Notes under the pieces: model-generated
The model's database searches: none
What the model was told of the DNA's origin: nothing
The model's input: the letters and a program-made list of their open reading frames with translations, nothing else
Program-made: the position numbers and the translations under genes
Source: a virus
Strand: one strand, 5' to 3'
IMG/VR virus record: IMGVR_UViG_3300044641_002725
DNA length: 64,000 nt
Shown here: piece after piece, positions 35,478 through 59,772 of the stretch
Layout of the letters: the number at the start of each line of letters is the position of its first letter
How positions within the stretch are numbered: position 1 is the stretch's first letter

Positions 35478-35654
35478 ATGACGAATCACGAAAACTTAGT
35501 AAATTTATTTGAATCATATCTTGCAGAAAGCGCAAAGTTTGACGAAAAAGGAAATAAAGCCGCAGGAACGAGAGCAAGAAAAGCATTAGCAGAGTTCACC
35601 AAAGCCGCAAAAGAGCGAAGAAAAGAGATCCAAGACGCTAAAACGGTAGAATAA
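35478..35654 (+). CDS. Histone H1-like (Hc1-type) small basic protein
   Basis: KF.EKGNKAAGTRARKAL......KERRKEIQ. Confidence 0.7.
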   Translation: MTNHENLVNLFESYLAESAKFDEKGNKAAGTRARKALAEFTKAAKERRKEIQDAKTVE

Positions 35655-35676
35655 CATACATAAATAAAAGAAAAAA

Positions 35677-37877: not shown

Positions 37878-37878
37878 A

Positions 37879-40473: not shown

Positions 40474-40480
40474 AAAGAAT

Positions 40481-40488
40481 TATAAATA
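40481..40488 (+). promoter_or_regulatory. T4 late promoter TATAAATA
   Basis: Exact match upstream of gp8. Confidence 0.7.
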
Positions 40489-40536
40489 CTACAGTTAAAA
40501 TAGTATCAACGAACAAATTTCAGTAAAGGGAAAAAC

Positions 40537-41817
40537 ATGGCTTCCATAGTAACTAGCAAATTCAGAGTCCACAATGCACAGCAGTTCGTGGAGTCTTTCT
40601 CAGAAGCGGCAAACACAACAATGTATTTGTTTGTCGGTAAAAATACAGCATTTCCAGACGATAACAATCCTCCAACTCCAGTAAATTCCACAGCAAATAT
40701 TGAATTTACTCCATGGCGTGATATGTTTGGTGCAAAGCGTATTCAATCGACTGACGTAACACACGCAATTGAACGCTATAACTGGACTTCAGGTACAGTT
40801 TATGACGCATATGACGACCAAGACACGAATTTATTAGATGACGATTTCTATGTTCTTACTGAAGACTATAATGTATACAAGTGTTTGTTTAATGCTGGAG
40901 GAACAGCATCAACAACAAAACCAACAGGTGTAAGCACATTACAATTTACAACTGCTGATGGTTATATTTGGAAATACATGTATACAGTTACTACTTCAAA
41001 TGCTTTGAAGTTTTTGACGAATGATTATATTCCAGTTCAGACTTTAACATCGGATGACGGATCCGATCAATGGGATGTTCAGCAAGCCGCAGTAAATGGC
41101 GGCATTCACGTTATTAAAGTGACTGCTGGTGGCTCTGGATACGCTACTGCGCCTGCGGTTACAATTACTGGTGACGGAACTGGTGCCACTGCAAATTCTA
41201 CAATTACTGCTAACGTAGTTACAGCAGTTACAGTTACTAACATTGGTTCAGGATATACAAGAGCAACAGTTTCATTTGCATCAGGTGCGGCAACTGCTAC
41301 AGCAGTCATTTCACCAAAAGGTGGGCATGGTGCAGATCCAGTTGAAGAGTTGGGTGGTAAGTATGTTATGATTAACTCTCGTTTAGATGGTAGTGAATCT
41401 AATACAATTTCCACAGCAAACGAATTCAGACAAGTCGGTTTAGTTAGAGATCCACTTTTATTTGGAACTACAACAAGAGCAACGGCATCTTCATTTAGAC
41501 AAACTTTCCGTTATACTGTAGCAAACACTGGTAACTATACAGTAGATGAAGTTGTTACAAGCGGAAGCAATACTGCATTTGTTGTTGAATGGGATGCAAC
41601 AAATAATTATTTGTATACAACTAAGCCTCTCAACCAAAACTTTGCAAATGGTGCATCAATCACTGGCGCTACTTCAGGAACATCTCGTACAATTACCGCA
41701 ATCAGTACTGCAAGTTTAGACCCATACTCTGGTGATCTATTGTATGTTGAAAATAGAGTTCCAATTGCAAGAGCGTCTGACCAAATTGAAGATGTGAAAC
41801 TAATTATTCAATTCTAA
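40537..41817 (+). CDS. gp8: Baseplate wedge gp8
   Basis: R.NWTSGT.Y..Y, VYKCL.N, DGY.WKYMY, ENR.PI.R...Q.ED.K.I..F. Confidence 0.9.
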
Positions 41818-41839
41818 GATAAAATAGGTTTAAAATTAA

Positions 41840-44800: not shown

Positions 44801-47800
44801 GTGTTCGGTATCAATGATGGTGTTCCAGCACAAGCTGGTAATCAGAGAGCAGAATCTCCACCAACTAAACCTGATACATTAGAAATCGCAGAATTAACTA
44901 TTCCACCATATCCTTCTTTACCGTCAGAAGTAAAAATCAAATTGTTGAAAAACAAACGATTCACTATGCGTGACGTTGCAAGAATAAATGAGAGACTTGA
45001 AAGACTAGAGTATTTTACTGCATTGAGTTTCTTAGAAAAACAAGCGACTGATACAACAGAATTAGACAATGATGGATTAGACAGATTCAAAAATGGTATT
45101 CTTGTTGACCCATTTACAGGTTGGGCTGTAGCATCTACATCTAGTGATGGTAAAGATTGTGCAATTGATAAGAAGAACAAATTGTTGACATGTTTACAAG
45201 ACAACGCAAACACAGTTGGTCTTCGTTATTCTACTACAGCACCCGCTCTTTCAACAACAACTATAAATTCTGGCAACAAAATTATGTTGCCGTTTGCTGA
45301 AGTTGAAGCAAAGGGATTAAAACAAGATAAAGCATCTAGACAATTAAGACTTGCTGAAGAATTAAACTTTGTTTGGACTGGTGATTTAATCGCTGTACCA
45401 TTTACAGACAATTTCTTTGACACTACAAACGATCCTACAAAAGCAGTTGTTTACAATGATGACCAAGGTGCAGACAACTGGAAAGCATTAGTGAGTGCAT
45501 GGAACACAGAAGTTGCACCATTAAATCAAAAATGGATTGGTGGCACAACGCAAACTGCAATCGTTGCTGGAACAAATCAAACAGCACAAGTTGGTAATTT
45601 CAACGTTACTACTGCACTACAGCAAACGACACAAGAAGCATTTAATCAATTAGCGGCAGGCAATCAAACAACATCTTCTACACAAGATGTTAAGTTTGAT
45701 AGAGTTGTTCAAGTTGAAGCCGCACTCAGAATGCGTCCTCGTGACTTTGTTATTCAAGCTACAGGATTAAAAAATAATTCTAGAGTTTATGCATTCTTTG
45801 ATGGTGTAAACGTTACCGCAAATTGCTTTCAAATTTCATTGTTCGGTAATACTACAGTACAATCATTAAACGACTTGATGAACAGCGCAGGTCAACTGAC
45901 TGGCAATAGTGCAAGCACTTGGGAAGCTACTGCTAATGGTGCTACACAACCACTCATTGTTAAAAACAATCAAATTATATTATTGTTTGAAGTTCCAGCT
46001 GGTAAATTTTTTACAGGACAACGTGAATTCAAAGTTACAGACAGTCCTACAAATTCTGAGGGAACAACATTAACTAGTGCAAGAAATACAATTTTTTCAC
46101 AGGGAATTTTACAAAAAACTGGTTCATTTACAATCAACTCTCGCCCATTTAACGTAACATTTAATAGCACAAACAATATTAAATCGTTAGGTCGAAAAGT
46201 TATTTCTGAACAGAGAGTTGAAATAGCCAGGTCTGAAATTCCACCACCACCGCCACCAAGAAATTGGGATCCATTGTCTCAAAGTTTCTTTGTTGATCCA
46301 GATACATTCACAAAAGGATTCTATTTAACTTCTATTGATCTTTTCTTCAGAACAAAATCGCAAGAAGACACTAGAAATGTTAGAGTTGAAGTTCGTGAAA
46401 TGGAAAATGGATTTCCATCTGCACAATTTATTAGCGAAACTGATAGCGCAGTTGTCAACAATAGAAACATTTTAATTAGTGAAGATGCATCTAAGGCAAC
46501 TAAATTTACATTTAAGAATCCTATCTATTTGAGTCCTGGTAATGATTACTGTTTCACCGTTAAACCTGAAAACAATGATCCAGATTACGCAATTTGGGTT
46601 GCTGAATTAGGTGCAATTGACATTACTAATCCAGACAGACAGACTAGAATTGAAAGTGCATACAATAGTGGAATTTTGTTCACATCTTCAAATGATAAGA
46701 CATGGACAACAAAACAAAACATTGATATGAAATTTACAATGAGAGTTGCTGAATTTAATACTTCAGAGAAAGTTGCATTCTGGGCTAATATTCCACAAAC
46801 AACTGCATTTACTTATGATGCATTGACTCCAGCTATTAGCGATCAAATTCTTCCTGAAACAAGCATTACTTATGATATCAAGACTGCTGACAGTTCATTT
46901 ACAGTTGATTCTGATTATACTACAGTTAAAAACTATGAAAGATTGGTGTTACGTTCTAGAAAACAAATTTCTAATACCGCTTCAGAAACATCAAGCGCAT
47001 TTAAATCTTTGCAAGTAAAAGCAACATTGTCTACAGCTAATAAGTTTATTACTCCATACATCGACAATGAAAATATTAGATTTCACTTTGATAAAAATAT
47101 CATTAACAATTCAGATAGCACGGCCGTAACAGGAACAGTCGAATATAGTTCTGGCAATAATATTGTTATTGGTACTGGTACAACTTTTACGACACAAGTA
47201 TTCCCTGGTGAATACGCATACTTTGGTGACGAATACCGCAGAGTTTCTTCGGTAACAAGTAACACAGTTTTGACTGTTATAAACAACTTTACCACGTCAA
47301 ATGCAGTCAGTCAAGCAATGACAACTCGCAATGAAGAAAATCCAACTGGACCATATTCTTCACAGTCTAGATACATTACTAAAGTTGTGACGTTGAATGA
47401 CGGATTTGAAGCGGCTGATCTAGTCACTTATTTAAGAATCAATCGTCCACCAGGAACTTCAATTAAAGTTTATGCTAAGTTATTGAATGAGAATGACTCA
47501 GACGCATTTGATGATAAATTCTATACTCCTATGGAATTAGTTGGAACAGAAACGTTCACACTCAATCAAAATGAGTACAAAGAAGAAAAGTATGTTGTTC
47601 CGTCTGTAGCTAAAACTGGTGGTTCTGAATTGCTTACTGGTACAGTTGCAGTTTCTGACGTATCAACAACAGTTACTGGCACATCTACTCGCTTCATTGA
47701 AGACTTGAAGATTGGTGACACAATTGCTGTCGGTACAGCTAGAACAGAACGTGTGGTTTCTACGATTGCAAACAATACATCATTGACAGTTGAATCTGCA

Positions 47801-47983
47801 TTCACTACAGTTGCTTCTACGCAAGACGTTTTCCGTGTTCTAAATAACACAGTTGCATATACGACACCTGATGGAAGAACATTCCAAGGCTACAAACAAT
47901 TCGCAATTAAGATTGTTTTCTTGTCTAGCAATCCAAGTTTTGCACCAAAGATCAAAGATTTACGAGGCATAGCATTAGCATGA
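41840..47983 (+). CDS. VrlC-like / DUF4815 large structural protein
   Basis: PYFDDY......ILYRPGRAVQARELTQ, APGADR, RFKNG..VD.F, DPL.QSF. Confidence 0.85.
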   Translation: MANTYPGGIDLDTSPYFDDYDEDKKFVRILYRPGRAVQARELTQSQSLQQVQTKRFAEYFFKQGALVDGCEQNLDLNLNFVKLQTNYNGSEVAVANLLNTIVYGANSGIKAYCGLVTDIDGDDPKTLFISYATNGTQVLTVNVAPTTLTSGNTITFSTGNTATIETFYTDPISGVIKIFVSNTNGTLTATTANTVLSTGATQVINVTAVSDQSANTAFANSETIFTANTTSRVYALAAATNAVRNVVNEGLATQQIYNYGSKITVSEGVVYVADHFVKHSTQTILLDKYTNEPSYKIGLVPNKSFVDYIEDQTLVDNAQGTPNFQAPGADRLKIDTTLTKVALNETTDENEFITITEIENGIARKRKSITVENKLEEVLAKRTQEESGNYTLSDPIVVVREHLINGDNDGRYTSAEGGNTDLLLVEVDPFTSYVSGYRNQLITKTPIEIEKGLSTQYVEQTKTQINYGQYIEVKEVVGAWDIMESTTVDLYDTAQQVITNLAHSTATAAGSAIGTARVRSIEYVSGAKGTADARYYLYLYDIVMSAGKNFKDVRSIFDSATPKRFADVVTTAAGAVLQETSFGTMIFPLPYEAIKTVRDNSENVETSFRFKKKFTVSFTSGVATVATDVVSETFVGTGLLNATQKNDFYMVVVNNAGANVATSALTGTVTVGAANTVVIGSGTSFNTQLNVGDLITINSLTRSVANIASATVLTLSTAHTTGSTANTFTKTLATGTILSLSGNGGSGATRTVNVTSPGTVAIDVKENATFTADVIVSMDRANSKEKVKTLNFQTQANINPNTHISGLSGPFGLGVGDIYQLHAVYQSSSFAIAATTANTDVTANYILDNGQRDYAYEHGTITPITGYVPTGRLLAVFDNFVHDTSQGVGYTSVNSYPVDDNATSNTTITTADIPVFTSPTTKKVFKLRDSIDFRPIKTANTSLNPIDVGTYEVPTFGLRVPESGSDFDADLIYYKGRISKVYINNAGVFGINDGVPAQAGNQRAESPPTKPDTLEIAELTIPPYPSLPSEVKIKLLKNKRFTMRDVARINERLERLEYFTALSFLEKQATDTTELDNDGLDRFKNGILVDPFTGWAVASTSSDGKDCAIDKKNKLLTCLQDNANTVGLRYSTTAPALSTTTINSGNKIMLPFAEVEAKGLKQDKASRQLRLAEELNFVWTGDLIAVPFTDNFFDTTNDPTKAVVYNDDQGADNWKALVSAWNTEVAPLNQKWIGGTTQTAIVAGTNQTAQVGNFNVTTALQQTTQEAFNQLAAGNQTTSSTQDVKFDRVVQVEAALRMRPRDFVIQATGLKNNSRVYAFFDGVNVTANCFQISLFGNTTVQSLNDLMNSAGQLTGNSASTWEATANGATQPLIVKNNQIILLFEVPAGKFFTGQREFKVTDSPTNSEGTTLTSARNTIFSQGILQKTGSFTINSRPFNVTFNSTNNIKSLGRKVISEQRVEIARSEIPPPPPPRNWDPLSQSFFVDPDTFTKGFYLTSIDLFFRTKSQEDTRNVRVEVREMENGFPSAQFISETDSAVVNNRNILISEDASKATKFTFKNPIYLSPGNDYCFTVKPENNDPDYAIWVAELGAIDITNPDRQTRIESAYNSGILFTSSNDKTWTTKQNIDMKFTMRVAEFNTSEKVAFWANIPQTTAFTYDALTPAISDQILPETSITYDIKTADSSFTVDSDYTTVKNYERLVLRSRKQISNTASETSSAFKSLQVKATLSTANKFITPYIDNENIRFHFDKNIINNSDSTAVTGTVEYSSGNNIVIGTGTTFTTQVFPGEYAYFGDEYRRVSSVTSNTVLTVINNFTTSNAVSQAMTTRNEENPTGPYSSQSRYITKVVTLNDGFEAADLVTYLRINRPPGTSIKVYAKLLNENDSDAFDDKFYTPMELVGTETFTLNQNEYKEEKYVVPSVAKTGGSELLTGTVAVSDVSTTVTGTSTRFIEDLKIGDTIAVGTARTERVVSTIANNTSLTVESAFTTVASTQDVFRVLNNTVAYTTPDGRTFQGYKQFAIKIVFLSSNPSFAPKIKDLRGIALA

Positions 47984-48231
47984 TAGTAGAAAAGATTTTA
48001 ATTGCTGAACCCGTTCGTGGATTCACCGAAAGGGATAAAAACTCTAAAGCCATCTTGAATACGGATGTAGACTCGCTTTTGAAATATAAAATTCAAAAAC
48101 GCAAAGCATCAGAACTAAATAAGAATGCCAACGACATAAATGTTCTAAGGTCTGAAGTAGTTCAAATCAAGTCGGATTTGAGTGAAATTAAAAGCATGTT
48201 ATTGCAAATAACTAATAATAACAGAAGATAA
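47980..48231 (+). CDS. Conserved small coiled-coil protein
   Basis: RD..SKAILNTD motif, usual follower of the VrlC-like gene. Confidence 0.75.
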   Translation: MIVEKILIAEPVRGFTERDKNSKAILNTDVDSLLKYKIQKRKASELNKNANDINVLRSEVVQIKSDLSEIKSMLLQITNNNRR

Positions 48232-48235
48232 AAAA

Positions 48236-49573
48236 ATGACAATTAATAGTGTAATTTTAGCAAATACGTTTAATGAGTTTAGATCGACCGTTAATGAAGT
48301 CATTACGACCGTTAATGCTGGATTCGGCGTATCAGCAGGCACTGGTACGGGACTAACATCTGGAAGAGTTGTTCTTGGTGGCGCATCAGGCTCATTCACA
48401 GACGATTCTGAACTCACGTATGATACAAGCACAAACGTACTAACGCTTGGTGGAACAACAGATGCAACTGCGGCTAATAATGGAACTCTTGTTGTCGCTG
48501 GTGGTGTTGGTATCGCTAAAAAGTTATATGTTGGAACAGACTTAAGAGTAACTGGAATAACAACATTTGAAGGTAACGTATTTTTCTTAGGTTCAAATAC
48601 TTCAATCTCTACTGTTAATATTGAAGTCAATGATCCAATGCTTCATTTAGCCAATAACAATGTATCAGACGCAGTTGATATTGGTTTTCATGGACAATAT
48701 AATCAAGGTGGTGCCAACTTACACTCTGGTTTTTTCAGAGATGCTTCAGATGATACTTGGAAGCTATTCAGAAATTACAACATTGAACCAGCGCCAGCAA
48801 TTGATATTACTGCTAACGGGTTTGCATGGGCAAACTTAGCTATTGGCGGACTTACGGCTGCCAACAGTATCAATATTGGACCAGGACAAACATACAAGAT
48901 TAATACTGTTGACGTTTTAAGCGCAACGGCATTAGGGTCTTCAGTTGTCACATCGTCACTCACATCAACTGGCACAATTACTTCAGGCACATGGTCTGGT
49001 TCTTTCGGTGCAGTTAGCGGTGCAAACTTAACTTCATTAAACGCAAACAACATTGCAACAGGAACAGTAGCGCCAGCAAGACTTGCTTCAGGCACAGCAG
49101 ACGCTACTACATTCTTGCGTGGTGACAGCACTTGGGCATCAGCGGCTGTTTCAATTACAGATAACACAGCAACAAATTCAACATTCTTTCCAGTATTTAC
49201 TAGTGTAACATCTGGATCAATTGTTGGTGCGAATACATCATCTACAAAATTAACTTTCAATCCAAGTTCTGGATTGTTAACGTCAACTGATTACAATTCA
49301 TCTTCTGATGTGACATTAAAAGAAAACTTTACAGAGATTGTAAATCCATTAGACATTATATCTCAACTTGACGGATTTGGATTTAGTTGGAAAGACACAA
49401 AAGAAAAATCTTATGGGCTGTCAGCGCAACAAGTCGAGACAGTACTTCCTGAAATCGTTAGGGTTCGTCCTGATGGCACAAAAGGTATTAATTATTTGAA
49501 TTTGATTGCCTTTTTAGTAGAAGGAATTAAAGATTTAAAAGAAGAAGTTCGCCAACTCAAGTCTTATAAATAA
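48236..49573 (+). CDS. Tail fibre protein with C-terminal S74 intramolecular chaperone
   Basis: NTFNEFR N-terminus; G/T-rich shaft; SSD..LKEN...W...G..AQ.VE..LPE.V...Y..L...L.E.IK.L. Confidence 0.85.
   Translation: MTINSVILANTFNEFRSTVNEVITTVNAGFGVSAGTGTGLTSGRVVLGGASGSFTDDSELTYDTSTNVLTLGGTTDATAANNGTLVVAGGVGIAKKLYVGTDLRVTGITTFEGNVFFLGSNTSISTVNIEVNDPMLHLANNNVSDAVDIGFHGQYNQGGANLHSGFFRDASDDTWKLFRNYNIEPAPAIDITANGFAWANLAIGGLTAANSINIGPGQTYKINTVDVLSATALGSSVVTSSLTSTGTITSGTWSGSFGAVSGANLTSLNANNIATGTVAPARLASGTADATTFLRGDSTWASAAVSITDNTATNSTFFPVFTSVTSGSIVGANTSSTKLTFNPSSGLLTSTDYNSSSDVTLKENFTEIVNPLDIISQLDGFGFSWKDTKEKSYGLSAQQVETVLPEIVRVRPDGTKGINYLNLIAFLVEGIKDLKEEVRQLKSYK
49565..49572 (+). promoter_or_regulatory. 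T4 late promoter TATAAATA
   Basis: Exact match upstream of 49599 ORF. Confidence 0.65.
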
Positions 49574-49598: not shown

Positions 49599-50276
49599 AT
49601 GGCAATTAAAGTCGGCAGTTGTACAGTCATTGATGACACAAGAAATCTAGCAAACGTATGCTCTATTTCATTGGTGTCTGGTGGGCAAGGAACAACAGGG
49701 CAAGTTTTAAAATCCCAAGGCACAGGGCAACCCTCAACTTGGGGTGCAGTTGATGCTATTACCAATTATGCGTATGATAGCAGAAATGACCTTAGAGCCA
49801 CAACACCAACAAACGGATCACAAGCATTCGTAGAAAATTTAGGATACTTTTCATTCAGTTTGGCTTCCGATGAACCAGATGACGATGAAACATCATTCAG
49901 AACATCAAATGGTGCTTGGCTTCTCTCTGCACCTATTTGGGATACAATTGAAGCATTCAATGCCTTTGAACCAAATGGCGGAAACTACAGCCTTGAAGTT
50001 GTGAATCAATTTGCTGGTGTTTCACCTTGTACATTTGCATGTCAATGTGTTTCTCTGCCAGGTGCAGTTCAAAGCGATGTTGTAGAAATATATGCAGTAT
50101 GTGGCGGATCTTTTGGTGGTCAAGTCTTTATGCGATATTGTGATCCGGCGTGGTGTATTGTTGCGTGGGGCGGCCCATCTGTTTGTGCAAGCGGTCCATG
50201 TAGCCCATCTGCAAGCATATGCGGAACTTGCTATGCAAACGTATGCAAGTGGAAAATTCATGTTCAGAAGGTATAA
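49599..50276 (+). CDS. Fibre-associated protein with Cys-rich C-terminus
   Basis: MAIKVG..TVIDD.RN fibre-type N-terminus, GQVL.SQG...P.W repeat; many Cys at C-terminus. Confidence 0.7.
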   Translation: MAIKVGSCTVIDDTRNLANVCSISLVSGGQGTTGQVLKSQGTGQPSTWGAVDAITNYAYDSRNDLRATTPTNGSQAFVENLGYFSFSLASDEPDDDETSFRTSNGAWLLSAPIWDTIEAFNAFEPNGGNYSLEVVNQFAGVSPCTFACQCVSLPGAVQSDVVEIYAVCGGSFGGQVFMRYCDPAWCIVAWGGPSVCASGPCSPSASICGTCYANVCKWKIHVQKV

Positions 50277-50293
50277 ATAGATGACTATAAATA
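50272..50293 (+). promoter_or_regulatory. Tandem T4 late promoters (TATAAATA x2)
   Basis: Exact matches at 50272 and 50286 upstream of the Cys-rich gene. Confidence 0.7.
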
Positions 50294-50324
50294 GAATACT
50301 AGAAATAATCAAGGGGAGAACACC

Positions 50325-53300
50325 ATGCCAGTGGTAAGAGGTATACGAGTTTTAAATGCAATATCGACAGGGAATACAACACCCGGCTGTCTTGATACTT
50401 TGCTATCCGATGGTGGACGATTAGCCGATGTAACACAGGTGCTAAGTTCTCCACAATATTCATGTGCGTTGGCGCAATCAAATACTGCGGCACACACTCT
50501 AGTTCGTTCTAATAATGCGATGACTGCATTGTTTGCAAATCCAATTGGATCATGCATATTCTATCAAACTACTAATAGTAGAGATGATATGTTGGGGTCT
50601 TCTTGTTACTACAACTACATGATGAGTTTTTCAACACCAGAGGCAACTAATGCGTTCAATCACTTTGGTAATACACCATGTATGATTAACTGTGCATTTG
50701 CTAGTAACACAGCATTTTTAGCTACCGCAGTATCATCAAACTCAGATATTACTAAGATGTTAACGTGCAATTCGTGTGTATCTGCATGTTTTAGAGGTAC
50801 TGCATGTTCAATAAAAGAAGCCGTTGGAACTGCAGGTCGTGCGGCATTTTGGTTAAGTGATGCAACTGCACTTGGTTGTTTGACTGCATCTGGTTTAAGT
50901 ACTGCACTTTGCACCAGCGGATTTACAGACACTCTCAATAGAGATGTTGCATGTGTGATGTGTACTGCGGCTTTTCAATGTTGTATTTTCGCTCTGTCCG
51001 AGCCAGCAAATACATACACTAGATTAGTGTGTGCAACAAACGAAATTATCACTAAAGGCGCATGTGGCGAAAACGAAACAAGCTGTAATTTTGCTAGATG
51101 GTCTAATACTTCCTTTGGTATTTGTTGTATGGCTAAATTTCTTGAGTCAGGAAATACGTATTTCATGGATTGCTTCGCTTCTTTTGGTAGCAATAGACAA
51201 AGAGCATGTCTTTTTTGCTTTTGTACCACATTGACTGGTTCAAACCCCATATGTCCTTGCGGCAGCCTCGGATCTGGCCTCGAGCAATATGGGCACCGTA
51301 TAATCAAGTCCGACGTTATCGGTCGTGGATGCTATGTCGAAAACGATCCTAATGCTCCACATTTATATTTTCCATGCGGTGGGTTTAGACAATGTCCAAT
51401 GACAATTGCAAATGGATCTCAACTTTCAAATACTGAAGTAGAATATCTAGGTCGATTCATCAAGTGTAACTATAACGTTATTACACACGCAGACTGTAGA
51501 TTTACGATGATTTCTCCAGGATTCTGGAATCAAAGTAGTGCTATTGCATGTTTTAGAACTTGCTATACATGTTCTTTGGACAGAACAACTGCAAACACAT
51601 CTGGTTTGACATTGAATTGTGGATTGTATTATACAACAGACAATGCGGCTACATTCAATCGCCTTTGTGTGCCTCTTCCAGCATGTATTTTCCAACAACT
51701 TTGTGGAAATGTTTGCTGTCAATTTACAGTTAGATATGCGTTAAGTACTTTTGCATGTTGCAACTACGTATACACTGGTTGGATTATTACTGATTGCGCT
51801 ACTAATAATGGTGCCTCTGGTGTCTGTGGTCCAGCATATTTCAAAACTGGGCACTCAAGAATGTGTCTGTTTGCCAACAGTCAACCAAATACTGCATCTT
51901 GGACTCACTTTCCAGATGTTCCGTTGCCATTCTATACAGTTGCATTCTGTGATGAGTACTTTGCTGGCGTAAGCCCAATGAGAACTGATGGATATCAAAC
52001 CACATTAGGAATTGAAAATCAATTATGTTGCCAAGAAGCTGGGCAATATGCTATGATGTTCTCTTTTGGTAAAGTTGGAGGTTGCGTTAGAATTAGTTGC
52101 GACCATTTTGTTCGAAATACACCTGCTGGTTTAGCATGTTTTACTCCATGTACATGCTGTAATGCATGTCTGTCATTGCCAGCGGCCACACATTGTATTT
52201 ACGGCAGATGTTATGAAGATTATTTTCAAGGGCATGGATCAGGAACGCTTCCATACTGTCTGTGCCAGGCTCCTCACGTTACCTGCACAGACACATGTTC
52301 GATCCTGAGACACATGATTAACCCAACTGCGGCATCTCACACATTAATTTATAAAAACCCAAACAATCAAGCGGATTCTAAAGCATTCCTTGTTGGCTGG
52401 AGATCATTTGCAATGTTATATGGCGGTACCGCTGGTGGCTCCATCGCCACTTGCACGATGCTAGGTGCCCGAGACCAATTCCATTATTACAATTGTTGTA
52501 CATGCCGTGGCCAAGCCGAAGGCACAGTAGGCGGCTGTGGATATTTTAGAAATACACCTGGTGTGAACGTCTGGTGCTATGGCTCTCAAGCAAATAATAC
52601 AATGCAAGGAACAGAACTTGATTGTACTAACGCTTTAGCGATTGGTGGTAGTGCATGTTCTTGGACAAACTTTACTTTTGCAAATGCTAAAATAATTGGA
52701 TGTAGACTTGTGTTATCTGGAGCATATCCTCCAGTAATGACTATGTGTGCATGTTGTGCCAGTTGTGACGGTACCTCTGGTAGCACCGCCGTAGGCACAT
52801 CAGAAGGCGCTCACATTGGAGGGAATTTTGGATGCCAAAACGCATTAGGACAAACCGGACACACAACAGTATTTAATACAGATGGTGTTGTTGGAACAAT
52901 TGTGTGCTGTTTTGAGTCTATGTATCATCAAACTCCAAATAGTAGAGGCTACGATAGTACAATATGTAATCAAGTTTTTCATTGCTCTTATTGTTCTGGC
53001 AGATGTTTTTGTTGTAATTCAGGAGTTTGCCAGTGCATGGGACATGCTGGACAGCGCCATCACTTTGCGGCCGCAATTCTTTCCGATGAAGCTGGCTTGA
53101 AGACAGTTAATTTTTATGGTTCATCAAATTCAGTATATTCAGTCCCAGCATTTCCTAACATGCCTCCAATGATTGCATGTAGGCCTAATTGTGCTCATGC
53201 CGATTATCAGAACACTACTTGCTATGTTTCTCCGGCACCTACTGGCAGTAATATTGTTAGATCAGACAAGAGTATATTTTGTGTTATAGATATAGGTGAT

Positions 53301-54503
53301 GCATTTCAGCTATGTCATTTTGGCAATGCCGGTTGCTGTTGCCATGCGTCCACAGCCGAATGTGATAACCGCTTTTTTCATCAATGTAATCCTGGAAACG
53401 CAAATTCTATCGGAATCGTTGTAGCACACCACCTCTTCGGCGCAACCGGGCCGCACCCAGGTTGCTTTGCGGCAGTTTATACTCCCAAAAACTGTAGTCA
53501 AGACATGACAACGTTTGATGAAACGTTCAACTTCTGTTATCTCATAGCACCACACAAAGATTTTTGTTTGGAAGGGCCATACTGCTTTAATAGAGCATGT
53601 GAGTGTTTTGGTCCTAATTGCTGTTTGAGTGTACCATGTTCTCCTTGTTGCCCTGCCTGTAATATTGTGCTTTGTTGTCAAACCGGCGTTTGTGGCGGCA
53701 CTTACTCGGCTGACCATCCAGTATGTAATTTTACTAGAGCCAACGGTTTCACCGCACAACATGTGTGTGTTAATCAGATTGATACTCACTATCCATGCTG
53801 TCAGACACCACCACGCCGTTGCTGTGCGGCCTTTGTGGGATGTTGTGGAATAGGCAATCATTTTAAAGTTGTGGCGAACAATAATTCAACGTTTCAATGT
53901 GCAATGCTTGTTTGCGTACATCAGGCATGTGGCTCATGCATTGCGGGCGGTGCCTACACTGGATGTTGTTTTTCTGACAGTCGCACATGTTGTAGAATGA
54001 TTCCTTATGATAGACTTATGAGAACGTGCAATCAAGCTGGCCCTAATTGTTTGTGGTTTGATTTTATATCAAGTGGTGTTCCTTCATGGGGCGCATGTAA
54101 CTCTTGCAATTATAGACCATGTAAATCATATTGGAATGCACAATATATGATGGATATAAGAGTTTCTTGTGCTGATACATGTTTCTGTTGCAACTGCCTC
54201 TGTTTTGCCGCCCAAGATCATCGTAAGAGATCAGGATTTCAACTTTATAGTGCATGTAATTCAACATACTTTGCCGTAGATTCCCTTTGTTATGAGGTGA
54301 TGCCTGCAACTCAAACAAGAGGTTCTGGAGCACCATTAAATACTCAAAATAGCGTACACATTGCATATTTTGATTTGACTCCATATAGATGTTCTGCCTC
54401 TGGTGGTGGTGGATTCTTTGCAAATGGTAATCCAAGCGGTACTGTGTCCGGATGTTCTTGCTGTTTGATGTTTACCAAAATAGATATGTTCTATAATCTA
54501 TAA
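50325..54503 (+). CDS. Giant cysteine-rich late (putative fibre/receptor-binding) protein
   Basis: 1392 aa, about 145 Cys by hand count (~10%), GGAG SD, late promoters, fibre locus. Confidence 0.75.
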   Translation: MPVVRGIRVLNAISTGNTTPGCLDTLLSDGGRLADVTQVLSSPQYSCALAQSNTAAHTLVRSNNAMTALFANPIGSCIFYQTTNSRDDMLGSSCYYNYMMSFSTPEATNAFNHFGNTPCMINCAFASNTAFLATAVSSNSDITKMLTCNSCVSACFRGTACSIKEAVGTAGRAAFWLSDATALGCLTASGLSTALCTSGFTDTLNRDVACVMCTAAFQCCIFALSEPANTYTRLVCATNEIITKGACGENETSCNFARWSNTSFGICCMAKFLESGNTYFMDCFASFGSNRQRACLFCFCTTLTGSNPICPCGSLGSGLEQYGHRIIKSDVIGRGCYVENDPNAPHLYFPCGGFRQCPMTIANGSQLSNTEVEYLGRFIKCNYNVITHADCRFTMISPGFWNQSSAIACFRTCYTCSLDRTTANTSGLTLNCGLYYTTDNAATFNRLCVPLPACIFQQLCGNVCCQFTVRYALSTFACCNYVYTGWIITDCATNNGASGVCGPAYFKTGHSRMCLFANSQPNTASWTHFPDVPLPFYTVAFCDEYFAGVSPMRTDGYQTTLGIENQLCCQEAGQYAMMFSFGKVGGCVRISCDHFVRNTPAGLACFTPCTCCNACLSLPAATHCIYGRCYEDYFQGHGSGTLPYCLCQAPHVTCTDTCSILRHMINPTAASHTLIYKNPNNQADSKAFLVGWRSFAMLYGGTAGGSIATCTMLGARDQFHYYNCCTCRGQAEGTVGGCGYFRNTPGVNVWCYGSQANNTMQGTELDCTNALAIGGSACSWTNFTFANAKIIGCRLVLSGAYPPVMTMCACCASCDGTSGSTAVGTSEGAHIGGNFGCQNALGQTGHTTVFNTDGVVGTIVCCFESMYHQTPNSRGYDSTICNQVFHCSYCSGRCFCCNSGVCQCMGHAGQRHHFAAAILSDEAGLKTVNFYGSSNSVYSVPAFPNMPPMIACRPNCAHADYQNTTCYVSPAPTGSNIVRSDKSIFCVIDIGDAFQLCHFGNAGCCCHASTAECDNRFFHQCNPGNANSIGIVVAHHLFGATGPHPGCFAAVYTPKNCSQDMTTFDETFNFCYLIAPHKDFCLEGPYCFNRACECFGPNCCLSVPCSPCCPACNIVLCCQTGVCGGTYSADHPVCNFTRANGFTAQHVCVNQIDTHYPCCQTPPRRCCAAFVGCCGIGNHFKVVANNNSTFQCAMLVCVHQACGSCIAGGAYTGCCFSDSRTCCRMIPYDRLMRTCNQAGPNCLWFDFISSGVPSWGACNSCNYRPCKSYWNAQYMMDIRVSCADTCFCCNCLCFAAQDHRKRSGFQLYSACNSTYFAVDSLCYEVMPATQTRGSGAPLNTQNSVHIAYFDLTPYRCSASGGGGFFANGNPSGTVSGCSCCLMFTKIDMFYNL

Positions 54504-54516: not shown

Positions 54517-54933
54517 ATGAAACTTATCGTAGAAAATAATCGTGTTATAGCAACAACATTTGATGGATATGAAGGACCTCAGCAATGGGTTTCTTCTCCA
54601 TCAGACTTTGTTGAGTCTAGAGCATTCGAATATACATATATTAATGGTGTTCTAGACTTACCAATGCTTCCATATCTTGAAATAGAAACACAAAGAAGAT
54701 TGGACACATTCGCACAAACAAGAGGATATGAAAATATCAATTCTGCAACGACATATATAAGTTCGTCAGTAACAAAATATAAGAATGAGGGTACATATGC
54801 CGCTACTGCTAGAGATAGCACTTGGTCTGCATTGTACCAAATCATCGATGATGCAACTGATGGTAGAAGAGAAAAGATTGTAAATTTTTCTGAAATTGAA
54901 TCTGAATTACCATCACTTGCTTGGCCAACATAA
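54517..54933 (+). CDS. Tail fibre assembly-like protein
   Basis: Q.RLD.FAQTRGY..I.SA.TY..S...KY..EG......RD..W ... ELP...W. Confidence 0.7.
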   Translation: MKLIVENNRVIATTFDGYEGPQQWVSSPSDFVESRAFEYTYINGVLDLPMLPYLEIETQRRLDTFAQTRGYENINSATTYISSSVTKYKNEGTYAATARDSTWSALYQIIDDATDGRREKIVNFSEIESELPSLAWPT

Positions 54934-55027: not shown

Positions 55028-55966
55028 ATGAAAAAAGTAATTTATATTGACGGTGGTGCAGGAAGAGCAATTGCGGCACTACCAGCACTTGAAAAATTAG
55101 TTAGAAACAAAAAACCAGAAGATGACATAAAAATTATTGTCATGGGATGGGACAATTTATATTGGGGCAATCAACTGCTTCAAGATATCACATTTAGTGC
55201 AGATACAAAAGGTATCTTTGATCTAGTCATTAAAGGCGCAGACAAACACATCAGCCCAGAACCATATAAAGTTCCAGAGTACTATAATCAAAAAGTATCT
55301 CTAGCGGAAGCGTTCGACATTGAAATCAATGGCACACATGACCATTCTGATTTACCTCCACTCAAGTTGTACACTAGCAAAGCAGAAGAAAAGAATGCCG
55401 CTAATATGATTGCAGACATAAAGATGCAACAGAAAAAAGACAAGACACTTGTGATTCAACCTTATGGTAGAAGTGCAAGAGTTGATCGTGCTGACATTAT
55501 CGATGATTCATCTAGAGGTCTTGATTCACACGCATACTTACGTTTAGTTAGAAAACTTTCAACAAAGTACAATCTTATTTTGTTTGCAGAGAAACCATTT
55601 CACCAGCCAGATGATAACTTCACCTTTAAACCTGAAATAGATTTAAGGTCATGGTCTGCTGTTATTGAAGCGGCTGATTATTTTGTTGGTTGTGATTCTG
55701 TCGGACAGCATATGGCAAGAGCGTTTAATAAGCCAGGAACTGTTTTCATCGGATCCACATTCGCAAAGAACGTTTCATATCCAGATTGGTTCAATATTTA
55801 CGAACGACCTGGAGTCGAAAAGAAATACTCTCCAATTCGTATTTCTGGTTTAGATTCACACTTAGCAGATAGATACAATGACAAGTGCATGGATTTATCT
55901 GATAAAGATGTAGACGAGTTGTTTATTTCAATTGTTAAAGATATAGAGAAGAAGGTAGGAAAATAA
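55028..55966 (+). CDS. GT9-like (ADP-heptose-type) glycosyltransferase
   Basis: GG.GR...A.PAL N-term; I..ADYFVGCDSVGQHMARAFNKPG matches the GT9 D(S/T)G.MH.A.A...P motif. Confidence 0.72.
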   Translation: MKKVIYIDGGAGRAIAALPALEKLVRNKKPEDDIKIIVMGWDNLYWGNQLLQDITFSADTKGIFDLVIKGADKHISPEPYKVPEYYNQKVSLAEAFDIEINGTHDHSDLPPLKLYTSKAEEKNAANMIADIKMQQKKDKTLVIQPYGRSARVDRADIIDDSSRGLDSHAYLRLVRKLSTKYNLILFAEKPFHQPDDNFTFKPEIDLRSWSAVIEAADYFVGCDSVGQHMARAFNKPGTVFIGSTFAKNVSYPDWFNIYERPGVEKKYSPIRISGLDSHLADRYNDKCMDLSDKDVDELFISIVKDIEKKVGK

Positions 55967-55967
55967 T

Positions 55968-57740
55968 ATGAGTTATAATATTTTAGGTATCAATCCTGGT
56001 CATAATGGTTCTGCGGCATTACTAGTTGATGGTGAAGTTGTATACTATGTTGAAGAAGAAAGATTAAGTCGTGCTAAGTATGATGGTAATCCATTCAGAG
56101 GCATGTTAGACATTATGCAGAAATGGCACGTTGATGAACTTGTCATTGCTGGTACTGGACAAGAAGAACATAAACTTCCGTGGACAGGTGAAGATGCGTA
56201 TACTGCGCTTGTTCGCAAATTCTATCCTAATGTAAAAGTACAAAGACTTGGAAATGAACATCACTTGGGTCATGCCGCATCTGCATTTTACAATTCTGGA
56301 TTTGAAACAGCAATTGCACTTATTGTAGATGGTGCTGGTTCACTCAAAAAAGAAAAAGTGGATGAGAAGAATGAAACTATCACAGCCGAAGGATATGAAA
56401 CAGAATCGATTTGGCATTGTGAATATCCAGGCAAATTTGCTTTAGTGCGAAAAGTTTATGGTAACAATGCCGGACCAAAAGTCGATACTGGAGTATTTGA
56501 TTTTGATGGTGGCGCAACAACTGTTACTAAAGCATACGAAGCAGTATCTCAGTACTTAGGCTTTGGTTTTATCGAAGCAGGTAAGACAATGGGACTTGCA
56601 CCATATGGTAAGTATGATGACAATATTCCTAGATTGTTTAATGGTAATAGGGGTTCAAAAGATGTTTTCATTCCTGCATATCCAGCGGGTGCTTACATCG
56701 ACCAAGGAAGATTTCCATATCTAAGACAATATGCAGATCCAAGAGATTGGCATAAAGACTCTGAAAAATTAACAACTGTTGAAAAGAATCTTGCTTGGCA
56801 TATTCAAAATGATACGCAACAGATAATTGGTGACTACATTGAACTTGCAGTTCAAGCTACAAAAGTAGAAAATATTGTTATCGCTGGTGGTTATGGTTTG
56901 AATTGCGTTGCAAACTATTACTTAAAGAAACGTTTTCCACATTTAAACATTTATGTTGAACCAGTCGCAAATGATGCTGGTACTGCAATTGGTGTTGCAA
57001 AACTTTCTTGGCACACTTCACAAAATGATAGTACAGTTCGCCCACAGAAAAGCATCTATTACGGACCTGAGTATTCAAAAGAATTGCTTGAGTATATCTT
57101 AGACGCAAACAAAGAAGCAATCAAAGTAACTCCTACTACAAAAGAAGAAGTTGCACAATTGATTGCTGATAAAAATATTGTTTCGATCTTTCAAGGTCGT
57201 TCTGAAGCTGGTCCTCGTGCATTGGGTAATCGTTCTATTCTTTATGATTCAAGAGATCCAGAAGGTAAAGACAAAGTTAATCTTGTCAAAGGTCGTGAAT
57301 GGTTTAGACCATTTGCAGGCTCTGTCTTGCTAGAAGACGCAAACGATTGGTTTGACATGGCTGGACTTGAAGAGTCTCCATTTATGATGTATGCAGTTAA
57401 TGTTGCCGCAGACAAAGTGAGTGAGATTCCGTGTGTTACACACGTTGATGAAACTTGTCGTGTGCAAACTGTTTCTGAAGAGAACAACAAGCATTACTAT
57501 GAATTGATTAAGGCATACAAAGACATTACTGGTGTTCCAGTTATCTTCAATACTTCATTCAATCTTGCTGGTCATCCTTTAGTTGAGACACTACAAGATG
57601 CATTGATGACAATCTTTAGTTCTAAACTAAAATATATCTACTTGCCTGAGTTAGGTGTTCTTGTCGAAAAGACAATTGATGATCCAACAGAGAAAGTTGA
57701 AGCTGAAGAAGTTGAAACAGAAACAGCAACTGAAGAATAA
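55968..57740 (+). CDS. Carbamoyltransferase (NodU/CmcH/TobZ family)
   Basis: HNGSAAL, EEERLSR.K, HH..HA..AFY.S, DG.G, GK.MGLA.YG, GG..LNC.AN, E.GPRALGNRS, K.REWFRPFA, NTSFN. Confidence 0.93.
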   Translation: MSYNILGINPGHNGSAALLVDGEVVYYVEEERLSRAKYDGNPFRGMLDIMQKWHVDELVIAGTGQEEHKLPWTGEDAYTALVRKFYPNVKVQRLGNEHHLGHAASAFYNSGFETAIALIVDGAGSLKKEKVDEKNETITAEGYETESIWHCEYPGKFALVRKVYGNNAGPKVDTGVFDFDGGATTVTKAYEAVSQYLGFGFIEAGKTMGLAPYGKYDDNIPRLFNGNRGSKDVFIPAYPAGAYIDQGRFPYLRQYADPRDWHKDSEKLTTVEKNLAWHIQNDTQQIIGDYIELAVQATKVENIVIAGGYGLNCVANYYLKKRFPHLNIYVEPVANDAGTAIGVAKLSWHTSQNDSTVRPQKSIYYGPEYSKELLEYILDANKEAIKVTPTTKEEVAQLIADKNIVSIFQGRSEAGPRALGNRSILYDSRDPEGKDKVNLVKGREWFRPFAGSVLLEDANDWFDMAGLEESPFMMYAVNVAADKVSEIPCVTHVDETCRVQTVSEENNKHYYELIKAYKDITGVPVIFNTSFNLAGHPLVETLQDALMTIFSSKLKYIYLPELGVLVEKTIDDPTEKVEAEEVETETATEE

Positions 57741-57766: not shown

Positions 57767-58465
57767 TTATGCAAGAGAATTTGCAAAATCTAGTAGAGAG
57801 TTAAACGTCTTTGTTTTATTCTTTAACTCCTTATTTGCAAATGTATCTAGTTTAGACTCTACATCTTCATAACCAGGAGATTTAATTAGAATAGGTTTTG
57901 CATGTACAGAGTCGCCAGCTTTCAGATTATATAATTTGTTGCCTGCAAAGTATCCACCCTTGAATGCAACTTTCATATCATTCTCAGCACGTTTCATCAT
58001 ACCATTGTTTGGCATTGCAAACAAATCTTCTTTCATGTTGGATGTTGCATATAGAAGTCCGTCAATTGTAAAGATTCCAGCTTGACCAAAATAATTCATC
58101 AACTGTTGAACATTAGAATCTACTGCTTGAGTAGTTAATTTACCTTGACTGATTAGGGGTTCATTAAAGAATATGACAAGTTTATATCCTTTTAGACGAA
58201 TAGTACGAATTGCATCTAATGCACCAGGAAGTATTTCTATATCAGATGGATTAATAATAGGTTTAGTGTCATTTAAAATTACACCTCTATCAATACCAAT
58301 TGTTTCTTTAGGAAAATAAGTTGGCCAGTTTTGCTGTTGCTGAGGCATTTGTTGGCCATATGGTGAACTATAGTTTTGTTGTCCGTACGGTTGCATCTGT
58401 GGCATAGTAGGTGATGGTGGTTGACCACCAACGTTCATGCTTCTATCTATTGAAAATCTTCCCAT
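57767..58465 (-). CDS. GmhB-like HAD protein with degenerate catalytic motifs and Q/P-rich N-terminus
   Basis: ILPGA..AI......GYK.VI..N, P..GM fold signatures; DRG replaces DxD. Confidence 0.7.
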   Translation of the reverse strand: MGRFSIDRSMNVGGQPPSPTMPQMQPYGQQNYSSPYGQQMPQQQQNWPTYFPKETIGIDRGVILNDTKPIINPSDIEILPGALDAIRTIRLKGYKLVIFFNEPLISQGKLTTQAVDSNVQQLMNYFGQAGIFTIDGLLYATSNMKEDLFAMPNNGMMKRAENDMKVAFKGGYFAGNKLYNLKAGDSVHAKPILIKSPGYEDVESKLDTFANKELKNKTKTFNSLLDFANSLA

Positions 58466-58477
58466 TGTTAAATCCTC

Positions 58478-59392
58478 TCAAATCTTAAAAAATTCATTTA
58501 TACTTCTGAAATGCGTTTTAATTCCTGCATCTCTTAATTTAGTCATGTCAGCACACGTCCAATATTGATATTTTGTTTGATACTCTTTTGGAAAAGGAAC
58601 AGTTTCAACTTTAGCATTTTCTCTCTGTGCAATAATTTCAGCAACTCTAGCAAAAGATTCTGGTGCACCTGTGCCCAAATTAAAAATTCCACTATTCATT
58701 TTGTTGAATGCTAATTCTATTTTGGCTTGTACAATATCTTCAACACAAACGAAATCTCTGAATATACTTTCTGAGCCAGAGAATAATTTTATTTTTCCTG
58801 TTTCTCTTGCTTGAATAGTAAACTTGGTGATTGGGCTTGCTTGATCTTTCTTATGCAATTCATTTTCGCCATAAACATTGAAGTATCTTAGCCCTTGAAT
58901 GTTGAATTCAAACTTACTAGAGTATTCTGACTCCATCAATTTAATAATTTTTTTGTCAAACATATATTTAGAAAATGCATATGGTGTTTGTGGATACATT
59001 GAAGCAGATTCTGGCACTCTGAAGTTTGCGGGCATGTCACCGTAAACACTTGCACTAGATGCATATTGAAAAGGTATCTTATGTTCAAACGATTTTCTCA
59101 AAAGTTTTTCTGAGAATTCATAATTTCTTTTCATTAACAAAGTACCATTTGTTTCTCTAGTAGAAGAAATTGCACCTTCATGGAAAATAAACTTGACACT
59201 ATCCCAATCAGAGAATGTATCAAAAAATGAATCAACATCATAATAATCACCAAACGTTGTGCCGTTTAGATTCATCATCTTATTGCCATCAGTCAAATCA
59301 TCAACAACTATGATTTCTGATATGCCTCTTGCATTTAATGCTCTAATTAAATTTGATCCAATGAATCCAAATCCGCCAGTAACCAGTATCAT
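58478..59392 (-). CDS. hldD: ADP-L-glycero-D-manno-heptose 6-epimerase
   Basis: VTGG.GFIGSNL...LN..G...I.VVDDL, IFHEGAISST.E, YASSASVYG, LRYFNVYG..E.HK...AS, KYQ.WT.AD. Confidence 0.92.
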   Translation of the reverse strand: MILVTGGFGFIGSNLIRALNARGISEIIVVDDLTDGNKMMNLNGTTFGDYYDVDSFFDTFSDWDSVKFIFHEGAISSTRETNGTLLMKRNYEFSEKLLRKSFEHKIPFQYASSASVYGDMPANFRVPESASMYPQTPYAFSKYMFDKKIIKLMESEYSSKFEFNIQGLRYFNVYGENELHKKDQASPITKFTIQARETGKIKLFSGSESIFRDFVCVEDIVQAKIELAFNKMNSGIFNLGTGAPESFARVAEIIAQRENAKVETVPFPKEYQTKYQYWTCADMTKLRDAGIKTHFRSINEFFKI

Positions 59393-59772
59393 TATTGTTC
59401 CTTGCTCTGCTGACTATCTCCAGGCAGAACACGATAATTATCTTGAACACTATCTGGTGTGGAGACTTCTATGATTGTGCCTTCTTCTAGGCAAATAACT
59501 TGATGTGGTTGTAGAGGACGATTACGCCAAACTTCTCCAGCTTTCAGCGTTACGTCATGCATACTTGCGTCTTTAGTCTCAATGAATTTAATCATAAATA
59601 AACCATCTAACACATACCAAGATTCATCTTTTTCAGCATGGAAGTGCATACTGAATTTTGCGCCTTTATTGAACTTCATCAATTTGCCGCAATACTTATC
59701 GTTGGTAGCCCAAATCAATTCGTGACCCCAACCCTTTTTCACAAAACCTTCTAGTCTTTCCATATTATTCAC
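59392..59772 (-). CDS. Cupin (sugar isomerase-like) protein
   Basis: V.KGWG.E.IW...D.YCGK......G...S.H.H..K.E.W, H......EVST.DS..D.YR..PGDSQ. Confidence 0.8.
   Translation of the reverse strand: MNNMERLEGFVKKGWGHELIWATNDKYCGKLMKFNKGAKFSMHFHAEKDESWYVLDGLFMIKFIETKDASMHDVTLKAGEVWRNRPLQPHQVICLEEGTIIEVSTPDSVQDNYRVLPGDSQQSKEQ

Follow-up and report, generated by a model that had tools for sequence, protein, structure and literature searches.

The subject of this report is a gene of extreme cysteine (Cys) content in a viral DNA sequence of 64,000 nucleotides (IMG/VR record IMGVR_UViG_3300044641_002725), the whole of which is referred to here as the window. The gene lies at positions 50325 to 54503 on the plus strand, and one-tenth of the 1392 amino acids (aa) of its product are Cys. 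Tail fibres determine the host range of phages, and virion proteins normally avoid Cys. The 1392-aa protein is very probably a late-expressed tail fibre or receptor-binding protein of an uncultured freshwater T4-like myovirus, as judged from its sequence and gene context. Based on a comparison across phage lineages, its Cys richness is probably a convergent, selected trait that is functionally tied to an adjacent enzyme module, which consists of a GT9-like protein and a carbamoyltransferase.

Organization and composition of the hyper-Cys gene

The features of the gene and its leader are as follows.

50325..54503, plus strand: gene of the hyper-Cys protein, a probable tail fibre or receptor-binding protein; 1392 aa in an uninterrupted frame.
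50325..50549, plus strand: N-terminal module of about 75 aa (MPxxRGxRxLN...GN.T..CL.TLL), defined by profile search, alignment and genomic contexts.
50325..50924, plus strand: residues 1-200, a predicted array of short helices (alpha-solenoid); AlphaFold2 predicted local distance difference test (pLDDT) 75-87, the sole confident part of the model.
51312..54500, plus strand: Cys-rich body, residues 330-1392, which matches no family or solved structure.
50272-50279 and 50286-50293, plus strand: two T4-type late-promoter motifs, TATAAATA, at -53 and -39 from the ATG.
50311..50319, plus strand: ribosome-binding site AAGGGGAGA (GGGGAG) upstream of the ATG at 50325, kept in homologous loci.

The 1392-aa protein contains exactly 145 Cys (10.4%; codons TGT 103 and TGC 42), including 22 CC pairs by overlapping count and one CCC. 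The ranking of its residues is C > A > G > T > S > N; charged residues are scarce (K 1.4%, E 1.8%), and F, Y and His make up 6.1%, 4.1% and 2.6%, respectively. CC, CxC and CxxC are the commonest Cys spacings, and the highest Cys density, 14-17 per 100 residues, is reached in residues 1001-1300. Fourier analysis of the Cys positions gave no peak exceeding those of shuffled sequences, and self-BLAST detected no internal repeat. The original prediction for this stretch, which was made from the letters alone, had counted about 145 irregularly placed Cys with CC and CCC runs and had noticed no signal peptide; the count proved exact and the spacing aperiodic, and the N-terminus, MPVVRGIRVLNAISTGNTTPGC, is on inspection without a hydrophobic signal-like stretch.

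In the remaining 57 open reading frames (ORFs) of the window, Cys accounts for 128 of 17,318 residues (0.74%), so that the excess in the 1392-aa protein is 14-fold. Baseplate and fibre proteins (window 30525-49573) are depleted of Cys (0-0.6%), five of them (83-864 residues) having none, and early or small genes of the window have about 1-3%. The earlier description of the neighbouring structural proteins as nearly Cys-free is therefore right for the baseplate and fibre proteins and wrong for the 225-aa protein encoded upstream, which has 13 Cys.

The tandem TATAAATA pair, taken for promoters from the outset, was found in the same position and with the same sequence in seven homologous loci, in which the proteins are only 52-66% identical; the pair is therefore under selection. 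Because the whole-window count of the motif (6, with 5.25 expected) is not above chance, the support for late promoters comes from position and conservation and not from number. The 70-base leader (window 50255-50324) is near-identical in seven loci (L001, L003, L006-L010), where the flanking proteins differ by 34-48%, so that conservation is higher between the genes than within them.

Homologues and probable identity as a tail fibre

A search of 5.8 billion proteins revealed about 22 homologues of the 1392-aa protein with 50-66% identity and near-equal length, all of them metagenomic, freshwater lakes included. Since all 22 full-length homologues keep a Cys content of 9.4-10.6%, the ORF is a real gene. 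A wrong-frame or antisense artefact at 50325-54503 was excluded by protein conservation over the full length, and a recoded genetic code was dropped as not needed. The identity of a precursor of a ribosomally synthesised and post-translationally modified peptide or lanthipeptide was dropped on size and for the lack of a lanthionine synthetase nearby.

A profile search of 1.8 billion representatives added P0028 and P0029, two more remote Cys-rich relatives whose identity to the protein over residues 1-620 is 27-29%, as well as numerous proteins that are short or of another build and resemble it only in the first ~75-190 residues. Scans of IMG/VR and JGI metagenomes yielded five and three loci, respectively, all of the protein's own narrow family. 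No Pfam or PHROG family was assigned to the 1392-aa protein in scans, Gly_rich_2 (PF21722) included; none of the PDB sequences was matched in a profile search at E values up to 1, tblastn and megablast of the gene against 50,697 phage records gave no match, and the ESM Atlas gave no usable one. In a contig of a relative of the window phage (L016; logan:SRR30597325_241876), a second hyper-Cys gene (6105-7694) encodes 529 aa with 58 Cys (11.0%) and with a Phage Tail Collar domain at the N-terminus; it is followed by a Cys-free gene for 93 aa and lies a few genes upstream of the gene of the 1053-aa relative P0029.

The N-terminal module is common to many Cys-poor fibre-type proteins that have other C-terminal domains. 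The genes of these proteins are found after Baseplate_J/Tail_P2_I genes (P2/Mu-type), near an Mtd_N tropism gene, or before a PF16778 chaperone gene. The Cys-poor fibres P0031, P0034, P0047 and P0048 resemble the 1392-aa protein in their first ~75-190 residues, in the chaperone-like gene downstream and in the tail-fibre position, but they contain ~1% Cys and carry other C-terminal domains (BNR repeats and others). Alignment with Cys-poor relatives, which had been suggested earlier as a way to see which residues the Cys replace, gave an answer for the shared part: Gln stands at the position of Cys22, and the helical repeats are Ala-rich ('SxTAMxAxxxS').

Identity among the full-length homologues is 66-77% in the N-terminal half and drops to 37-57% in the C-terminal half. 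Fibres commonly show such a gradient, which suggests a conserved attachment end and a diversifying, host-facing end. The tail-fibre assignment is based on the position in the tail module, the conserved late promoters, the shared N-terminal module and the downstream chaperone-like gene, and the same four observations lend indirect support to the premise of the original prediction that the protein is a fibre of the virion.

Conservation and turnover of the cysteines

In the homologue alignment, 53 of the 145 Cys are invariant and 68 are conserved at 90% or more, although Cys turns up in one homologue or another in as many as 319 columns. Among residue types, only Trp is more conserved than Cys. 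Invariance extends out to P0028 and P0029 for 46 columns, of which 15 are Cys, and dense conserved clusters occur at residues 887-902, 1081-1118 and 1166-1173. A core set of Cys conserved out to relatives of 27-29% identity is therefore structurally essential.

The variable Cys follow a different pattern. The 121 polymorphic Cys columns show no co-variation beyond that of Ser, Thr, Ala, Gly and Asn controls (best-partner phi 0.714 versus 0.68-0.72), variable Cys are gained and lost singly and not in pairs, and odd Cys totals occur in 7 of 18 sequences. Ser, Gln, Asn, Ala and Thr stand in for variable Cys in other homologues at 1.3-1.5 times expectation, and Val, Ile, Leu, Phe, Met and Trp are under-represented opposite them (0.05-0.72). 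The total per homologue is about 142 ± 4.6 Cys, with a variance 0.56 of that expected for independent columns, which is not significant (P = 0.08). As far as the alignment can tell, the variable Cys sites behave like exposed, Ser-like positions and unlike obligate disulfide partners or the ligands of four-ligand metal sites.

Association with the GT9-like/carbamoyltransferase module

The 312-aa protein encoded downstream of the hyper-Cys gene belongs to the cyanophage cluster T4-GC 302, with homologues in 55 phage records. Pfam GT9 (PF01075) was detected in 12 of the 14 members of its family (best E 1.1e-5), and its only matches among PDB sequences are the lipopolysaccharide (LPS) heptosyltransferases WaaC/WaaF, with E values of 0.16-0.18 and at the nucleotide-sugar motif. 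The GT9-like gene is always followed by a NodU/Nol-type carbamoyltransferase gene, and in cyanophages the pair is followed by ADP-heptose-type genes (kinase/adenylyltransferase, isomerase, cupin and epimerase).

In every T4-like lineage that was inspected, one to three Cys-rich (7.6-11.6%), low-charge proteins are encoded just upstream of the enzyme pair. Their Cys contents are as follows.

AG-345-O18: 758 aa, 9.6%; 290 aa, 10.7%.
S-SSM7 (L019 4917-7310): gp114-116, 10.6-11.5%.
P-SSM2 (L020 5979-8845): gp304 and gp306, 10.1%.
AG-345-P14: 9.2%.
AG-345-F15: 9.3% and 7.6%.
S-CAM3: 10.9%, 11.6% and 8.0%.
Sf-FS3: 10.8%, 10.6% and 9.4%.
S-CAM1 (L025 5320-8120): 11.6%, 10.0% and 8.4%.

These proteins fall into at least six groups without detectable similarity to one another or to the 1392-aa family. 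Marks of fibre-type proteins among them are Gly_rich_2 (PF21722) and the Tail Collar domain, and in S-SSM7 the Cys-free protein that follows the Cys-rich ones matches tail-fibre-assembly PHROGs. The cyanophage Cys-rich family was found by tblastn in 21 of 50,697 phage records, and the GT9-like gene was present in 21 of these 21. In the whole genome of S-CAM1, the three upstream genes are the only annotated ones of at least 150 aa with at least 7% Cys. In Syn9, which has no such enzyme pair, the first 100 kb, holding all tail genes, contain fibre genes with 0.1-2.5% Cys and no annotated gene above 5.2%.

The link between hyper-Cys and the module is drawn because unrelated proteins at this place reach ~10% Cys, whereas the other fibres of the same genomes have ~0-1%. 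Inheritance as a block can explain why the genes stay together, but it does not explain the ~10% Cys shared by unrelated proteins. The cross-lineage comparison is evidence for the coupling and not for the chemistry.

Weaker GT9-like homologues occur in two non-T4 phages, where adjacent tail proteins have 4.1-4.4% Cys and low Lys and no carbamoyltransferase gene is adjacent; the two are Aeromonas phage HJ05 (L026 7309-8988, 4.1%) and the N4-like Vibrio phage SBP1 (L027 9745-12522, 4.4%). In the published analysis, the enzyme genes of cyanophages were treated as 'LPS gene clusters' without a settled role, and Cys was not mentioned (PMC3037559). A literature search for Cys-rich fibre proteins of cyanophages or T4-like phages found no description.

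Neighbouring genes and predicted structure

The genes around the hyper-Cys gene that bear on its function are as follows.

41840..47983, plus strand: 2047-aa VrlC/DUF4815 structural protein, preceded by the baseplate genes gp48, gp53, gp5, gp25, gp6, gp7-like and gp8.
48236..49573, plus strand: 445-aa Cys-free fibre with a C-terminal Peptidase_S74 intramolecular chaperone domain (Pfam, PHROG).
49565..49572, plus strand: TATAAATA motif preceding the 225-aa gene (motif scan).
49599..50276, plus strand: 225-aa partner protein; 11 of its 13 Cys lie in the last ~85 residues, and the N-terminal two-thirds are nearly Cys-free.
54517..54933, plus strand: 138-aa Cys-free acidic protein, a probable tail (fibre) assembly chaperone (hhalign to a PF16778-bearing protein).
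55028..55966, plus strand: 312-aa GT9-like (heptosyltransferase-like) protein (Pfam GT9 in family members; phrog_8954; T4-GC 302 homologue).
55968..57740, plus strand: 590-aa NodU/Nol-type carbamoyltransferase (Carbam_trans_N, E 5e-29; Carbam_trans_C, E 6e-59; phrog_1601).
57767..59772, minus strand: three genes, encoding a 232-aa protein, a 304-aa NAD-dependent sugar epimerase/dehydratase and a 126-aa cupin (Pfam of syntenic homologues).

The tail module thus reads gp48, gp53, a tail protein, gp5, gp25, gp6, gp7-like, gp8, VrlC/DUF4815 and an 83-aa protein, then the 445-aa fibre and the 225-aa, 1392-aa, 138-aa, GT9-like and carbamoyltransferase genes, and, after the three minus-strand genes, gp13, gp14, gp15, gp16 and gp17. 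All related contigs keep this order, and so does the distant relative, in which additional fibre genes are present. The 225-aa gene is always immediately upstream of the Cys-rich gene, distant relatives included, and its product is more conserved (70-92% identity) than the 1392-aa protein. Residues 1-50 of the 138-aa protein align to a 106-aa PF16778 (Phage_tail_APC) protein, the gene of which follows that of the Cys-poor relative P0047 (hhalign probability 98%, E 5e-14), and a second case was found. In direct searches the 138-aa protein had no Pfam or PDB match of its own, and the Cys-free proteins encoded in the cyanophage clusters are not detectably homologous to it. The GT9-like gene starts 525 bases downstream of the 1392-aa gene. 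The minus-strand genes probably belong to the sugar-nucleotide part of the enzyme module, since the equivalent cyanophage clusters carry ADP-heptose genes.

Two other genes of the window deserve mention. In a 1412-aa Cys-free Ala/Gly/Ser-rich protein (23073-27311, minus strand), residues 303-397 match Peptidase_M23 (E 2.7e-28), and there are weak PHROG matches to tape-measure, endolysin and minor-head proteins. Its gene lies in a region of raised GC content (0.42-0.44), and the product may be an ejected protein, or one that sets the tail length, with a cell-wall hydrolase as part of it. The gp5-like baseplate hub (34781-35410, plus strand) has only 209 aa and matches the N-terminal ~100-160 residues of hub/lysozyme profiles of 850-930 residues, so that the lysozyme and needle parts are absent or encoded elsewhere.

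AlphaFold2 was run on both halves of the 1392-aa protein with alignments of 24-25 sequences. Structure prediction had been proposed at the outset as a way to see whether the Cys are exposed or paired; it gave a model of residues 1-200, with ~20 short helices, and none of the Cys-rich body, residues 200-300 being weakly modelled. When the N-terminal model was used in a fold search, all matches were generic ARM/HEAT-like alpha-solenoids. The top match, a Clostridioides difficile phage receptor-binding protein, was rejected as an N-terminal relative, its values (Z 8.5, root-mean-square deviation 12.9) being below the bar for helical repeats. From the homologues available, the Cys-rich body appears to have a fold beyond current prediction.

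Proposed mechanism

The observations can be combined into one explanation, a late fibre with selected Cys and enzyme-coupled decoration, which is offered tentatively and as a whole falls somewhat short of an even chance. The conserved N-terminal helical module would anchor the fibre in the tail, probably via the 225-aa partner, and the 138-aa protein would assist its folding. The long, faster-evolving Cys-rich body would be distal and face the host. Of the Cys, the ~68 conserved ones, some of them densely clustered, may stabilise the fold by forming disulfide knots or thiolate clusters, and the ~75 variable Cys would lie at polar, probably exposed positions. While still in the reducing cytoplasm, these exposed thiols, and perhaps neighbouring Ser/Thr, would receive heptose and/or carbamoyl groups from the enzymes encoded next to the fibre gene, so that the fibre surface would be chemically decorated before the phage is released.

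The modification step taken singly, in which the adjacent GT9-like and carbamoyltransferase enzymes act on the Cys-rich protein, is inferred and stands as a possible but doubtful proposal. One precedent is HypF, a member of the carbamoyltransferase superfamily that performs S-carbamoylation on a Cys of HypE. On the side of glycosylation, adhesins are heavily glycosylated in the cytoplasm by autotransporter heptosyltransferases of family GT9, with numerous acceptor sites of loose definition (PMC4358343). The original prediction had given three possible roles for the Cys: surface acceptors for modification, cross-links formed after lysis, or metal sites. The first of these gains circumstantial support from the alternation with polar and small residues, from single turnover and from the enzyme adjacency.

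Several points weigh against decoration of a Cys-rich virion fibre. To our knowledge, S-heptosylation is not a known modification, and we know of no S-linked heptosyl or carbamoyl modification of proteins in viruses. Presence of the 1392-aa protein in the virion is inferred only. The similarity of the window's 312-aa protein to GT9 is weak, with a score below the Pfam cut-off (16.1 versus 22 bits), and TibC-type protein heptosyltransferases were not matched by its family. No sequon-like context was found around the Cys in any of the Cys-rich families, only mild clustering of CC, and the Cys total is statistically no more constant than that of some other residues. For residues 330-1392, AlphaFold2 gave pLDDT values of 21-40 (mean 27 in the second half) and no usable model. 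The absence control consists of one genome (100 kb of Syn9) and the tblastn distribution. In addition, the enzyme adjacency could instead reflect a 'receptor specificity cassette' of LPS-modifying genes and receptor-binding proteins, which is taken up again below.

Alternative explanations

The main rival to modification is cross-linking by disulfides. The Cys would be reduced during assembly and oxidised after lysis in oxygenated lake water to a dense network of disulfides within and between chains, which would lock the fibre, together with its joint to the Cys-rich C-terminus of the 225-aa protein, in a highly stable and protease-resistant state, the enzymes being linked genes without a part in it. 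Published cases exist: in the cyanophage Pam3, disulfides join the fibres to Cys-rich parts of the wedge, and dithiothreitol sets the fibres free (PMC9942802), and the tail sheath of Milano contains a disulfide network (PMC10811340). In view of both, the earlier statement that disulfides in a virion would be unusual has to be softened. The rank of Cys after Trp in conservation, the dense conserved clusters at 887-902 and 1081-1118 and the Cys-dense C-terminus of the 225-aa partner all agree with cross-linking, and so does the avoidance of Cys by other virion proteins, as expected if stray thiols are harmful outside the cell. However, in a family of 50-66% identity over half of the Cys positions are variable, with single turnover, no partner columns and often odd counts. 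Random, keratin-like cross-linking would tolerate such single-site turnover, but it leaves unexplained why the trait tracks the GT9-like/carbamoyltransferase module across unrelated families. A scan of CxxC motifs in the 64-kb window also gave no convincing thiol-oxidase or thioredoxin-fold candidate. Disulfide cross-linking as the full explanation is considered unlikely, if not strongly so; metal binding, pure packing and the receptor cassette are less well supported.

An improbable alternative is that Cys is simply a small, mildly hydrophobic packing residue in a tight, low-charge fibre fold, the composition being a product of fold and drift without thiol chemistry. The dominance of small residues (A, G, T, S, N), the very few charges, the free interchange of Cys with Ser, Ala and Thr, and the lack of a cofactor or enzyme signature in the 1392-aa protein fit this view. 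It is hard to reconcile with the 14-fold excess over the rest of the window and the ~10% Cys in every homologue, with at least six unrelated families reaching hyper-Cys independently in the same genomic setting, and with homologues that have the same N-terminal module and manage with ~1% Cys. That the level is kept in homologues and reached independently, while Cys-poor sharers of the module are viable, points to selection on Cys as such.

The receptor cassette mentioned above is less probable still. The GT9-like, carbamoyltransferase and heptose genes would alter the host LPS against superinfection or re-adsorption and would travel with fibres that read the LPS, Cys richness being a separate matter. 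In P22-like phages, receptor-modifying genes adjoin the tailspike genes, and the closest solved relatives of the present enzymes act on LPS. The cyanophage clusters were likewise described as LPS gene clusters (PMC3037559). A cassette accounts for the linkage, but not for hyper-Cys in every linked, unrelated fibre protein, nor for the Cys-poor fibres elsewhere in the same genomes.

Binding of Zn, Fe, Cu or similar metals by the Cys clusters, structurally or for metal-mediated engagement of a host receptor, is equally remote: local runs of metallothionein type (CxxCxxxCxCCxxxxCxC at 887-902; CxCxxxxCC...CxxCCxxC at 1092-1118), the common CC, CxC and CxxC spacings and the iron bound by the T4 gp37 tip speak for it, but there is no periodic or repeated metal motif and no zinc-finger or metal-binding family match (Pfam, PDB sequences), the abundance of F and Y is unlike that of metallothioneins, His is low, single-site Cys turnover is ill-suited to four-ligand sites, and a large need for scarce metals would be surprising in oligotrophic waters.

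Significance

A class of fibres with one-tenth Cys, arisen repeatedly in unrelated proteins and always beside the same transferase genes, points to undescribed thiol-based chemistry on the phage surface. In its widest form the proposal is a dedicated virion-decoration system of aquatic T4-like phages that places S-linked (or mixed S/O) heptosyl and/or carbamoyl groups on hyper-Cys fibres of unrelated folds; this we regard as unlikely on present evidence. If true, the fibres would be substrates of the GT9-like protein, acting as a heptosyltransferase, and of the NodU/HypF-type carbamoyltransferase, and their decoration would serve to tune host recognition or to shield the fibre. The coupling also offers a testable role for the large 'LPS gene clusters' of P-SSM2, S-SSM7 and S-CAM1, the function of which has been open since 2010 (PMC3037559). 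These three carriers are in culture, and the link can thus be tested directly.

Comparison with known systems

The nearest counterparts of the 1392-aa protein are the cyanophage Gly_rich_2 Cys-rich proteins (S-SSM7 gp114-116, P-SSM2 gp304/gp306, and those of S-CAM1 and S-CAM3), which are annotated as hypothetical and occur as two or three tandem paralogues. Like the 1392-aa protein, they have 8-11.6% Cys and ~2% each of K and E, and their genes share its position, upstream of chaperone-like, GT9-like and carbamoyltransferase genes in the tail module before gp13. They differ in their length of 260-360 aa, as against 1392 aa with an alpha-solenoid N-terminus, and no sequence similarity is detectable.

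The Pam3 fibres and wedge and the Milano tail are likewise Cys-reliant tail components of phages that assemble in the cytoplasm and meet oxic water or soil, with a Cys-rich junction of fibre and baseplate (PMC9942802, PMC10811340). They use a handful of specific Cys, in contrast to 145 (10%), mostly not positionally fixed, in the present protein, and there is no sequence similarity.

A further parallel is provided by the AIDA-I/TibA adhesins with AAH/TibC (BAHT family), in which a long, low-charge, surface-exposed protein of adhesin type is encoded beside a GT9-type transferase gene, an arrangement to which the 1392-aa protein and its GT9-like neighbour may correspond. These adhesins are modified with ADP-heptose in the cytoplasm at many loosely defined sites (PMC4358343). 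Their acceptors are Ser residues in a repetitive beta-helix, whereas the 1392-aa protein has no repeats and is conspicuous for Cys; it matched no autotransporter or pertactin-type family in Pfam and shows no sign of a repetitive beta-helical passenger. The phage enzyme is only weakly GT9-like and does not match TibC.

Decoration of virion proteins by phage-encoded glycosyltransferases has reportedly been described for mycobacteriophages by Freeman et al. in 2023 (as cited in PMC12801897), and the likeness lies in phage-encoded transferases acting on virion proteins. The glycans in that study are said to be O-linked and placed on capsid and tail-tube proteins of actinobacteriophages, with no Cys-rich acceptor, GT9 or carbamoyltransferase involved. 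A tail fibre is a known kind of protein; what is undescribed here is the extreme composition, the unmatched fold of the body and the recurrent link with the transferase module.

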